Assembly (NCBI GenBank): GCA_037439425.1
Contig: JBBIWA010000023.1
Location: 251 to 64,250 of the forward strand
Direction of reading: 5' to 3'
From: Acidobacteriota bacterium
Lineage (GTDB): Bacteria; Acidobacteriota; Blastocatellia; RBC074
DNA: 64,000 nucleotides
Each line of letters opens with the position of its first letter. Within the stretch, counting starts at the first letter, position 1. The translations under genes and the position numbers were made by a program. Below the pieces are notes generated by a model. That model did no database searches, was not told where the DNA came from, and worked only from the letters and a program-made list of their open reading frames with translations. Of the stretch, positions 42,237 through 45,626 are shown in pieces.

Positions 42237-45200
42237 TCACTCCACAGTTACCGATTTGGCAAGATTGCGCGGCTGATCTACGTCACAGCCGCGCCGCACG
42301 GCGATGTGGTAGGCCATCAGCTGCAATGGGATCACCGAAAGCACAGGCGAAAGCAGTTCGCTTGAAGGCGGCACTTCGATGGTGTAGTTGGCCATCTCAC
42401 GCGTCTCTTGGTCGCCTTCGGTGACCACAGCCACGACAATGCCATCGCGGGCACGGACTTCCTGGATGTTGGAGAGAGTCTTTTCGTAGCGCAGCCGCGA
42501 TTTCTCGTCATCGGGATCGAGCGTGTTAATGACGACGACGGGCAGGCGCGAGTCAATCAAAGCGTTCGGACCATGCTTCATCTCGCCCGCCGCATAGCCT
42601 TCGGCGTGAATGTAGGAGATCTCCTTGAGCTTCAAGGCGCCTTCAAGCGCAATTGGGAAGTTGATGCCGCGCCCAAGATAGAGAAAATCGGTGGCCAGAA
42701 CGAAGCGCCGCGAGAGTTCTTCATAGTCAATGTGGGGATTGTTCAGCAGCTTCTCCATCTTGACCGGCAGCTCAGACAGATGCTGCACGTGCCACTTCAT
42801 CTGCTCTTGGTCGAGCGTCCCGCGTTCCTGCGCCAGGTAGAGCGCAAAGAGATAAGCAGCAACTATCTGCGACGTGAAGGCTTTGGTCGAAGCGACGCCG
42901 ATCTCAGGTCCGGCGTGCGTGTAGATCGTGCCATCAGCTTCGCGCGTCATCATCGCCCCCTGCACGTTGCAGATAGCAATCGAGCGGCAACCGCGCCCTT
43001 TGGCTTCGCGCAAGGCGGCCAGCGTGTCTGCGGTTTCGCCCGATTGCGAAATGACCATCATCAACGTCGTCGGCGAGAGGATCGGATTGCGATAGCGGAA
43101 CTCCGAAGCGTAATCCACCTCAACCGGCACGCGGGCGAGTTCTTCGATTAGATATTTGGCCACCAGCGCAGCGTGCCACGCCGTGCCGCAGGCGGCAATC
43201 TTGATGTCGGTGAAGCGGCGAAACTCTTCTGGTGCCATCTCCACTTCATCCAGGTAGACGTGGCCCGTGTCGAGCGAGACGCGATTTTGCGTCGTGTCGC
43301 GCACGGCGCGCGGCTGCTCGTAAATTTCTTTGAGCATGAAGTGCTTGTATCCGCCCCTTTCAGCCTGAATCGGGTCCCAGCTGATGTGCTGCCGCTTGGG
43401 CTGGACCGGATGGCCGTTGGCATCTTCGACCCGCACGCCAGCGCGCGTCACCACAGCCATCTCGCCATCGCCCAGGAAGAACATGTCGCGTGTATGGGGC
43501 AAAATTGCCGGAATGTCGGAAGCGACGAAATATTCGCCTTCGCCTAAACCTACTACAAGCGGTGGGCCGAGCCGCGCGGTGATGAGCTTATCTGGCTCGT
43601 CAGCCGATAAGGCGACCAGCGCATAGATGCCACGGATCTCCTTGAGCATCGCGCGGAATGCACCTTCCAGACCAAGGTTCGGATGTTGCCGGAGATGTTT
43701 TTCGATCAGATGCGCGACGACCTCAGTGTCGGTTTCGGATTGGAAGCGGTGATCTTGCTTTTGCAGTTCGCGCTTGAGTTCGAGGTAGTTTTCGATGATG
43801 CCGTTGTGAACGACCACGATGCGCCCTGAGCAATCACGGTGCGGATGCGCGTTCTCTTCGCTTGGTCTTCCATGGCTACTCCAGCGTGAGTTCATAACGG
43901 CGAAGCCATTGGCGAGGAAATTCTCTGTGCCCGGAACTTCGAGGTCGCAGACCCAGGGGCTGGGCGCAGGGACTTCACGCACACTGCGGACTTCCTGGAA
44001 GGCCATGTCGCCGTCCAGACAGCGTTGCAGTAAATCGCGCACCTGTCCAGCTTCGGGATAAGCATTAAGAGCGGCGAGCAGTTTGTGCGTTTGAGCTTCA
44101 GTGAGATAGCCGCTGCCTCTGAAAGGACGAAATGTTGAAGCCGGCACGCCACATTCGGCCAGTCGGCGACACAGCGCGACCTTGCGTAACGGGTTCGCTT
44201 TCGACGAAAGCGAGGTGCCCGGCAGTTTTTGATTGAGCAGTGATTCGAGTTGCCGCCGCTTGTCGGAAGCTGATAAGCCGATTGCTTCAGCAAAGCGCTG
44301 CAACATATCGGCATTGCTGATGGAAACTCCAGCAGTGGGCCGCAGGCGGCGGTGTTGCGGCGCGGGCGGGGCAATGTGCAATGAACTAATGATTCCGAAA
44401 CGCAGTAACCACTGCTGGACGCGCCGCACGAGTTCAATATCCGCCATGCGCAGCGAAATCTGTCCTGCTGCCTCCGCAACGCAGCCTTCCGCGTCAAAAA
44501 GCCCGCGCAGAAACGCCGCCAACAGTTCATCTGGTTGCTGGCCGAGCTTGGCGAACAACTCTTCCCGCTTCTCGACGAAATGCTCGCGAAACCATCGCGC
44601 CATTTCGAGGCTGTTGACTTCTAGCGCCCACGCTTGCACGCCAGTCAGGGGAACAATGCGGCCTTCCAGACCAAAGAGCGAGACGATGATTGACTGATAA
44701 TGCTCTAGCACATTGCGCCGCTGATCCTTCCAGCGCAGGCAGCGTTCGTGTGCGTGGCCATCGCCGATGAAATAACCGGCCAACTGCATTAGTTCGGGCG
44801 TGGCTCGCTCTGGTAGCCGCACGAAGTTGCCATGATGGCTGTGAACGGGAGAGGCTTCTGGCGGCGGAAAGGGAAGCTCAAGCTCGCGGCAGACGCCCTT
44901 GAGCCACTCTTCCCGCGCATGACGGTCATTGAACAAAATATGTCTCAACGCGGAGTCAGTCATCCCCGCGCCCGCGGCTAGCGCTACCTGCGTCAAGCCT
45001 GAAGCGACCACAGCATTTTGCAGTGTTTCAGCGGCATTGTCACTTAGCGCCCAGTAACGGCGCGGTTGCGTGGCTGCAAAGGTCATCGGTTTAGCCTCCG
45101 CAGGAGCCGGAATCCGCTTCGCCAATAACAGCAAATCTCCCGGCTGAAGCTCTCCAGCGAAGCGTTTCTCCAGCTCGCCAGTCTCCGTGTTCACCACCAA

Positions 45201-45626
45201 CATCCGGTGCTGGCGCGTGCATGTGATGCTGGCGGACGCCGTGCGTAACTCAATCAGCTTTTCTGGTGCGCGATGCCGGAGCACGAAGGCCGGACGCGGA
45301 ATCAATCGCAATGTTTCAGGATCGAGCGAGAGCACCATCACTTCATCTTCTAGCTCGCCAACCGGTAGCACACGACCATCAGCCAGTTGAATCAACGTGT
45401 CAGGAGCCAGACAGTGCCCCAGCCCGATCTGCCCGTCGAGCGGCTCTTCCTGCAAAGCCTTGACCAGCTCCTGTAACTTGCCCGGGCGCCGGCGCACCTG
45501 CATCACGCCGTCTTTCACAACAGCAATACCGGCCGAGTCGTAGCCGCGATAGGCCAAACGGTCCAGCCCCTCAATGAGGACAGGCACCACAGGTCGTTCT
45601 CCAACATAACCGATGATTCCGCACAT
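42237..45626 (-). CDS. glmS: Glutamine--fructose-6-phosphate aminotransferase (GlmS) interrupted by a 508-aa intein. The mature protein would be ~621 aa.
   Basis: N-extein MCGIIGYVG...GLGH. C-extein [17 protein letters not shown]..., two SIS domains, C-terminal ...AKSVTVE. Confidence 0.9.
43890..45413 (-). other. Intein with a LAGLIDADG homing-endonuclease domain, inserted between GLGH and SRWSSHG of GlmS.
   Basis: Begins [13 protein letters not shown] (Cys1, block A). LAGLIDADG motifs [11 protein letters not shown] and [11 protein letters not shown]. Ends ...NGFAVMN, followed by the +1 Ser. Confidence 0.8.

Follow-up and report, generated by a model that had tools for sequence, protein, structure and literature searches.

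Is an essential enzyme that is interrupted in its active-site loop still produced in active form, and is the interrupting element still mobile? These questions are raised by a glmS gene on the minus strand of the window analysed here (the whole stretch of 64,000 nucleotides taken from contig JBBIWA010000023.1 of an Acidobacteriota bacterium), which carries an insert of 508 amino acids (aa). GlmS is essential and acts in cell-wall precursor synthesis. We place at about 0.85 the probability that the insert is a class 1 intein with a LAGLIDADG homing endonuclease, which would splice to give active GlmS and would be capable of homing. The parts of this reading differ in strength. Membership of the element in the intein lineage that occupies this same site in GlmS is virtually certain. 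That the copy in the window still splices is likely, given that its open reading frame (ORF) is intact, its residues are conserved and its C-extein (the part of the host protein downstream of the intein) is under purifying selection. That its endonuclease is still active is somewhat favoured.

The interrupted gene

42237..45626, minus strand: glmS precursor ORF, 1129 aa with the intein, stop codon included (TIGR01135, GATase_6/7 and two SIS domains in Pfam)
45414..45626, minus strand: N-extein, GlmS aa 1-71, reading MCGIIGY...GQIGLGH; Met1 is followed by the catalytic Cys, and the segment lines up with E. coli GlmS 1-71 (Cys1 numbering)
43890..45413, minus strand: intein, 508 aa, class 1 (Cys1...Asn508, +1 Ser), from hidden Markov models (HMMs), alignment, AlphaFold and Foldseek
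42237..43889, minus strand: C-extein from the +1 Ser (SRWSSHG...), comprising the remaining glutaminase domain and the two SIS (isomerase) domains

The precursor begins with MCGIIGYVG and has a C-terminus canonical for GlmS in the ORF translation. It matches the glmS equivalog TIGR01135 over its full length at 800 bits against a cut-off of 418, in two stretches flanking the insert, and NF001484 at 821 bits (both NCBIfam); the SIS domain is also found in two stretches (Pfam, E 7e-49). Given this equivalog match, the Cys nucleophile at the N-terminus and the pair of SIS domains, the interrupted gene is glmS, as a sequence-only reading of this DNA had already named it, with an in-frame intein inside. 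Its C-extein is 84-87% identical to the GlmS of Blastocatellia genome assemblies (L024, L033 and L038), so that the host, a soil-type acidobacterium, most likely belongs to this class. Precursor residues 72-579 are foreign to GlmS, and their excision leaves a protein of 621 aa. The GC (guanine plus cytosine) content is 0.55-0.62 and runs flat over the insert and its flanks. Using tblastn, neither a second glmS nor a second copy of the intein was found in the 64-kb window, and a search upstream of glmS for a glmS ribozyme or other RNA element found none.

The boundaries given by the sequence-only reading are exact to the base in the ORF translation: the N-extein ends ...DGQIGLGH before CLAPDTLIQ..., and the intein closes with ...VMN before SRWSSHG, the C-junction being legible in the DNA as well. 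Alignment of the spliced glutaminase domain to E. coli GlmS (4amv, 2j6h and 1xff; 263 residues, E 1e-71) places the insertion between His71 and Thr72 (Cys1 numbering), directly before Arg73 and Trp74. This is the position that had been proposed in the active-site loop, directly between the His of GxGH and (T/S)RW(A/S)(T/S)HG. In E. coli GlmS, Arg73 and Trp74 are part of a loop with two roles, glutamine binding and gating of the ammonia channel. Since the insert adjoins this loop, the precursor is expected to be inactive before splicing, and 'active-site loop' is a fair description.

Anatomy of the intein

45099..45413, minus strand: Hint N-lobe, intein aa 1-105 (TIGR01445 over aa 1-73; modelled beta strands aa 7-98); includes block A, Cys1-Leu2, invariant in the 12-sequence alignment described below
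45204-45218, minus strand: block B, T66-R-Q-H69-R70, with H69 invariant in the same alignment
44874..45056, minus strand: helix-turn-helix (HTH, Xre-like) four-helix module, intein aa ~120-180 (modelled helices 125-138, 142-148, 153-160 and 168-177)
44229..44816, minus strand: LAGLIDADG homing-endonuclease core, intein aa ~200-395 (Pfam LAGLIDADG_3; Foldseek I-DmoI)
44757-44783, minus strand: LAGLIDADG motif 1, LAGYFIGDG, intein aa 211-219, acidic D218 kept
44484-44510, minus strand: LAGLIDADG motif 2, LRGLFDAEG, intein aa 302-310, acidic E309 kept
44013..44228, minus strand: helical domain, intein aa ~396-467, placed after the endonuclease and before the Hint C-lobe (modelled helices aa 411-467)
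43890..44012, minus strand: Hint C-lobe, intein aa 468-508 (TIGR01443 over aa 490-506)
43935-43952, minus strand: block F, V-C-D490-L-E-V, D490 invariant
43890-43895, minus strand: M-N of block G, ANGFAVM507-N508, N508 invariant

The insert was compared with profile libraries and by structure prediction. Pfam Intein_splicing matches it with E 2.3e-13 (50.7 bits against a gathering threshold of 35.8) and LAGLIDADG_3 with E 6e-23 in two stretches; HTH_3 reaches only E 0.0027 at aa 136-178, below the Pfam threshold. Both ends are recognised by NCBIfam, intein_Nterm (TIGR01445) at 37.4 bits against 24.5 and intein_Cterm (TIGR01443) at 17.7 against 15.6. The intein blocks A, B, F and G, whose alignment the sequence-only reading had proposed as a check, are found by HMMs and by alignment, and the two LAGLIDADG motifs that it had picked out have their acidic residues in place.

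An AlphaFold2 model of the intein (33 homologues) has a mean predicted local distance difference test score (pLDDT) of 93.2 and a predicted template modelling score (pTM) of 0.88. It consists of five modules: the Hint N-lobe, a four-helix bundle (125-177), the LAGLIDADG core, the helical domain (~411-467) and the Hint C-lobe. Searched with Foldseek against the PDB, the model retrieves first intein endonucleases (TliVMA, 7qss, E 3.5e-23; PI-PfuI, 1dq3, E 1.4e-21; PI-PkoII, 2cw7; PhoVMA, 7qst; PI-SceI, 1vde), then I-DmoI for the endonuclease core (template modelling score, TM, 0.7 normalised to the target), while the Hint part also matches the Hedgehog autoprocessing domain 6tyy. A Hint fold is therefore indicated both by Pfam Intein_splicing and by the model, and the endonuclease has two motifs, each ending in an acidic residue, in a core that matches I-DmoI and PI-PfuI. 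The intein endonucleases share with the window intein a Hint domain split by a two-motif LAGLIDADG endonuclease (Foldseek E 1e-23 to 1e-11; TM up to 0.62 for the query and 0.72 for the target). They differ in being only 12-16% identical and in occupying other hosts and sites; the Xre-type HTH before the endonuclease is a feature of the GlmS family.

This HTH is probably an extra DNA-recognition module. PF01381 (HTH_3) is annotated on relatives of the intein (P0002, P0008 and archaeal eRF1 and RadA inteins), and several relatives are for this reason named 'helix-turn-helix domain-containing protein' in databases. Such a locus should be annotated as one glmS with an intein and not, as in several relatives, as a 'LAGLIDADG endonuclease' or 'helix-turn-helix protein'.

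Natural mini-inteins of 247 aa (P0005/L029) and 230 aa (P0006), which have shed the HTH and the greater part of the endonuclease, still contain the helical domain. Its retention is unusual, as such a part would be expected to be lost along with the endonuclease.

Inteins at the same site in other genomes

We scanned 185,579 species genomes with a DNA pattern encoding HN followed, across the junction, by [STC]RW[AS][TS]HGxP, which is impossible in an intein-less glmS. All 34 matches are GlmS inteins at the identical site (GxGH then CL..., HN then SRWATHG), with lengths from 158 to 509 aa. A metagenome scan in which the penultimate residue was left free (NGxxxxN followed by [STC]RWxxHGxP) gave 38 matches, again all genuine same-site GlmS inteins. 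Every one of the 72 contigs found with junction patterns reads GxGH then C(L/Y)... at one end and ...N then SRW(A/S)THG at the other, and the copies for which both junctions are available are all homologous to the window intein, with 26-61% identity over the full length. The bacterial hosts in the genome scan include many Omnitrophota, Elusimicrobia, four Blastocatellia, an Acidobacteriota bacterium and Chloroflexi/Anaerolineae, together with Abditibacteriales, Kerfeldbacteria and Saccharibacteria; the archaeal hosts are Micrarchaeota, Methanobacteriota, Methanomicrobia, Archaeoglobaceae, Hadesarchaea and Bathyarchaeia.

These matches also decide whether the insert could be an assembly artefact, a chimera of glmS with an unrelated intein gene. 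The source contig is probably metagenome-assembled, which leaves room for such an event, but the reading frame is kept, codon for codon, across both junctions, the GC content is continuous, the identical architecture recurs in 72 independent contigs, and the flanks are collinear on both sides with two intein-less contigs (L001 and L004, see below). The same in-frame architecture in more than 70 independent assemblies excludes misassembly in practice, and we regard its probability as negligible.

Protein searches extended the family. A relative from an Acidobacteriota assembly (P0001) is 61% identical over the full length and one from Omnitrophica (P0008) 28%, both at the same site. In Bipolaricaulia and Anaerolineae the site holds mini-inteins of 230 and 247 aa, from which the HTH and the larger part of the endonuclease are gone. 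When 1.84 billion cluster representatives were searched exhaustively with phmmer, further same-site copies came to light, including P0058 and P0201 (Methanocaldococcus cluster). P0058 shares a 90% cluster with CAB3287631.1, the GlmS of a Methanocaldococcus species, and was missed by the genome pattern because its C-extein reads HGNV rather than HGxP. Remoter relatives, many of them equipped with the same HTH_3 module, are archaeal eRF1, RadA and DnaB-type inteins; among these the archaeal RadA and eRF1 inteins (HTH_3 plus LAGLIDADG_3) are the nearest outside GlmS (E 1e-51 to 1e-20) and have the same domain order, but they lie in other host proteins and sites and are only 22-30% identical.

The Methanocaldococcus GlmS intein has the same host protein and the same insertion point (G-x-G-H then C-L-H-P-D-T; H-N then S-R-W-A-T-H-G), and P0058 is homologous to the window intein (E 1e-51, 33% identity). 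The shared site between His71 and Thr72 and the homologous sequence show, at the level of such comparisons, that the two are the same allele, one long known. The window copy differs in its bacterial host, its HTH module, its full 508 aa and its Met-Asn end; P0058 has no HTH segment, ends in His-Asn and belongs to a protein of 1017 aa in all. In the intein registry InBase the M. jannaschii enzyme (MJ1420) has had an entry, 'Mja GF-6P', ever since the publication of that genome.

The GlmS inteins of Blastocatellia/Acidobacteriota, Omnitrophota, Elusimicrobia, Chloroflexi, the candidate phyla radiation (CPR) and DPANN are closer still in architecture, with the same site, the order Hint-HTH-LAGLIDADG-helical-Hint and a length of 503-509 aa. 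Copies of this kind in public assemblies (for example, JBDTUN010000135, DALYLB010000065 and DATMAG010000001) show 60-61% identity where they come from Acidobacteriota and Blastocatellia, and differ from the window copy in the penultimate His, in Tyr/Phe in place of its Cys489 and in a C-extein SRWATHG instead of SRWSSHG. Comparison of insertion sites thus finds a homologous intein at the same site in many other genomes, Methanocaldococcus included. Judged by these matches the element is not new; it is a further copy of a GlmS intein allele that is widespread in uncultured bacteria and archaea.

Most occurrences of the allele are in lineages of small cells from groundwater and soil (Omnitrophota, CPR and DPANN). 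The Hint domain of the window intein is 65% identical to that of an Anaerolineae mini-intein whose extein is 55% identical, whereas against the Blastocatellia copy L024 the values are 62% for Hint and 87% for the extein. This discordance indicates horizontal transfer between phyla. A copy from Elusimicrobia (L035, CAYWAR010000047.1) was left out of this analysis: its extein identities are spuriously low and its ORF is probably disturbed. Its intein-bearing ORF has 1215 aa and an intein 87% identical to that of L037, but its C-extein is only ~30% identical to all others, a pattern that resembles a frameshift or a fusion beyond the intein.

The searchable literature yielded nothing relevant describing a GlmS intein, older InBase papers lying outside that search, and no description of the cross-domain spread of the HTH-carrying allele; in its main text the intein survey of Novikova et al. 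2016 does not mention GlmS. The host is a central metabolic enzyme, whereas replication and repair proteins house most bacterial inteins.

Splicing residues and the penultimate methionine

Conservation was assessed on an alignment of 12 full-length inteins from the same GlmS site. Invariant in all 12 are Cys1-Leu2, His69, G217-D218-G219, D307-A308-E309, Asp490 and Asn508. The window intein has C1, T66, H69, D490, N508 and the +1 Ser for splicing and D218 and E309 in the endonuclease. In the 57 columns identical in at least 11 of the 12 sequences it deviates twice, by K84R and H507M, which marks a well-kept copy and not a decaying one. The class 1 residues are Cys1, the Thr-x-x-His of block B, the block F Asp (F:4) and Asn508 with its +1 Ser. 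A further trait, the penultimate His (G:6), which is common though not obligatory in class 1, is replaced: position 507 is Met.

In the proposed mechanism, the 1129-aa precursor would be translated and its Hint domain would perform the four standard steps: an N-S acyl shift at Cys1, helped by Thr66 and His69 of block B; transesterification onto the +1 Ser; cyclisation of Asn508; and finally an O-N shift. Ligation of ...GLGH to SRWSSHG... would restore the glutamine-binding loop, the products being an active 621-aa GlmS and a free intein of 57 kDa.

Several observations weigh against an intein that splices normally and supplies the cell with its GlmS. Position G:6 is His in 37 of the 38 same-site metagenome inteins and Ser in the other, found with the pattern in which G:6 was free, and it is His in all 34 genome copies and in all protein-search relatives examined. 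The block F His ('..HNF') is replaced by Glu or another residue across the whole GlmS intein family, so that the window intein lacks both histidines that usually assist Asn cyclisation. Another glmS may moreover be present elsewhere in the genome, beyond the 64-kb window.

Taken together, these points could mean that the intein is genuine but impaired, H507M blocking or greatly slowing Asn cyclisation in a glmS that is on its way to a pseudogene while the cell uses another glmS or amino-sugar salvage. A pattern specific for Met at G:6 had 0 matches in the metagenomes, and the G:6 His helps to stabilise the tetrahedral intermediate (PMC4031507). On the other side, the 1129-codon ORF is intact with just those two conserved intein columns changed, and the isomerase part of the C-extein has a ratio of nonsynonymous to synonymous divergence (dN/dS) of 0.05, as low as or below that of neighbouring genes. 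This value and the lack of a second glmS in the window argue that the glmS copy is in use.

The residues themselves may also offer a way around the substitution. Some inteins do without His F:13 and His G:6, although both promote Asn cyclisation; about 5% of functional inteins carry a residue other than His at G:6; and in the His-less Ssp DnaE intein an Arg at position 11 of block B assists the reaction (PMC4031507, Mills, Johnson and Perler). That Arg is present in the window intein as Arg70. We therefore consider impaired splicing unlikely and keep to a splicing intein, in which Asn cyclisation, with both assisting histidines absent, may be slower and may lean on Arg70. The sequence-only reading had described the ending VMN correctly and had gone on to state that splicing must be efficient; this second part was a deduction, and without the near-invariant penultimate His the C-terminal step may be slower. 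Met for His in a family that has no block F His is a case, ready-made in nature, for testing what catalyses Asn cyclisation when both histidines are missing.

We also considered whether FAVMN, where relatives have (L/I)(L/I)SHN, is a compensated frameshift. This was rejected: the other frames of ggcttcgccgttatgaac give ASPL* and LRRYE, neither of which contains SHN. A change from His to Met takes three base changes, which rules out a sequencing error for Met507.

Among the other same-site inteins a single one departs from His at the penultimate position, which makes two natural G:6 variants in the family; it is on metagenome contig Ga0256833_1000873 (L062, 8815-8861), where ...ANGLVASN precedes SRWATHG; this intein starts CYHPDTFV rather than CL....

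A slow or condition-dependent Asn cyclisation could in principle gate GlmS maturation after translation, and with it the supply of UDP-N-acetylglucosamine (UDP-GlcNAc) for the envelope. We think this improbable. Better supported is the reading of the element as one allele with an extra Xre-type HTH that has spread over both prokaryotic domains in a metabolic enzyme.

Occupied and empty sites

Whether the intein also homes can be approached through close relatives with an empty site. The sequence-only reading had asked whether related genomes carry intein-less glmS alleles, and they do. The 90%-identity cluster of the window GlmS includes two intein-less proteins of 622 aa each, P0039 and P0040, which read GLGH then VRWSTHG. 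Their contigs (L001 and L004) are syntenic with the window, with the order glmU, small ORF, glmS, isochorismatase, proline-racemase-like gene and proline dehydrogenase, and match it at ~90% of nucleotides over more than 5 kb to either side, the 1524-bp intein being absent. The isomerase part of the window GlmS is 96.6% identical to P0039, which makes the two clear sisters; in the glutaminase part the identity falls to 80.4%, no higher than with other Blastocatellia (up to 83.9%).

The empty site in L001 and L004 consists of GGGCTAGGCCAT followed directly by GTTCGCTGGAGTACGCAC and is the candidate homing site; the reconstituted site of the window, with the intein removed, is GGGCTGGGGCAC followed by TCACGCTGGAGTAGCCAT. 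The free intein would cut intein-less glmS between GGxCAY and xxxCGxTGG, and repair of the cut would copy the intein together with flanking extein DNA (homing). At the +1 codon L001 and L004 have Val (GTT), which could not support splicing; in the window this codon is TCA (Ser), and the host-type CGC TGG AGT comes next. On the N-extein side, the protein sequence beside the junction is closer to intein-bearing alleles (P0001: RRRPGKLTGLIKAIQDEPLEGNTGLGH) than to P0039.

The divergence between the sisters is concentrated around the site:

43375..46326, approximate bounds: divergence island (recombination tract), comprising the small upstream ORF, the N-extein and the remaining glutaminase domain

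With the intein removed, 60-nucleotide windows compared with L001 have a median identity of 92%, which falls to 48-88% from ~46326 (after glmU) to ~43375 (end of the glutaminase domain); nearly all the remaining low-identity windows in 11.6 kb adjoin this island. The synonymous divergence (dS) and dN/dS, both by Nei-Gojobori for the window against L001, are as follows:

glmU: dS 0.26, dN/dS 0.10
isochorismatase: dS 0.33, dN/dS 0.10
proline-racemase-like gene: dS 0.27, dN/dS 0.11
glmS isomerase domain: dS 0.34, dN/dS 0.05
glmS N-extein: dS 1.30, dN/dS 0.22
remaining glmS glutaminase domain (codons 73-240): dS 1.07, dN/dS 0.15

Synonymous divergence is thus 3-5x higher in the glutaminase domain around the site than in the neighbouring genes, and the jump from ~0.3 to 1.1-1.3 identifies a recombination tract. 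By this measure ~1.4 kb of flanking DNA has a history different from that of the rest of the locus. Such a tract is as would be expected if the intein had been gained by homing with co-conversion. The sister lineage could equally have lost the intein when an intein-less allele replaced its own, and the same tract would result. A donor search for the glutaminase domain of the window gave a best database match of 80%.

The tract also bears on whether the endonuclease still works. The splicing domain could be functional and the endonuclease dead, late in the homing cycle, so that the intein would be a vertically inherited passenger that is no longer mobile. Relatives are found at every stage of loss (same-site mini-inteins of 158, 230 and 247 aa), and the nearest full-length inteins are just 60-81% identical, with no very recent transfer visible. 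The window copy nevertheless keeps both LAGLIDADG motifs, D218, E309 and the other invariant endonuclease columns; its core is modelled with high confidence, and a recombination tract surrounds the element. A dead endonuclease is therefore possible but the less probable state, and we retain an intein whose endonuclease may well still cut.

The two sisters, ~90% identical, form a natural pair of occupied and empty sites that should be useful for studying the length of co-conversion tracts and the gain and loss of inteins in Acidobacteria. Current understanding of inteins is unchanged by this locus; its points of modest interest are Met for His at G:6, the empty and occupied pair with its measurable tract, and the cross-domain spread of the HTH-bearing allele.

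The ORF between glmU and glmS (45659-46168, minus strand), which lies inside the divergence island, encodes 169 aa; its product has hydrophobic segments and, N-terminally, a zinc-ribbon-like motif CxxC...CxxC. The ORF has 64-69% aa identity to L001, where neighbouring genes have a dN of only ~0.03, and its match in L001 is split over two different frames, suggestive of a frameshift or faulty assembly. Homologues (~40% identity) adjoin glmS in L002 and L017. At the upstream edge of the island, just past the glmU stop (46171-46315), ~130 bases are without a counterpart in L001, which has 14 bases there. On the other side of glmS, the isochorismatase-family gene (41637-42224, minus strand) and the proline-racemase-like gene (40609-41640, plus strand) converge, their 3' ends overlapping by 4 bases; in L001 the same two genes are ~17 bases apart.

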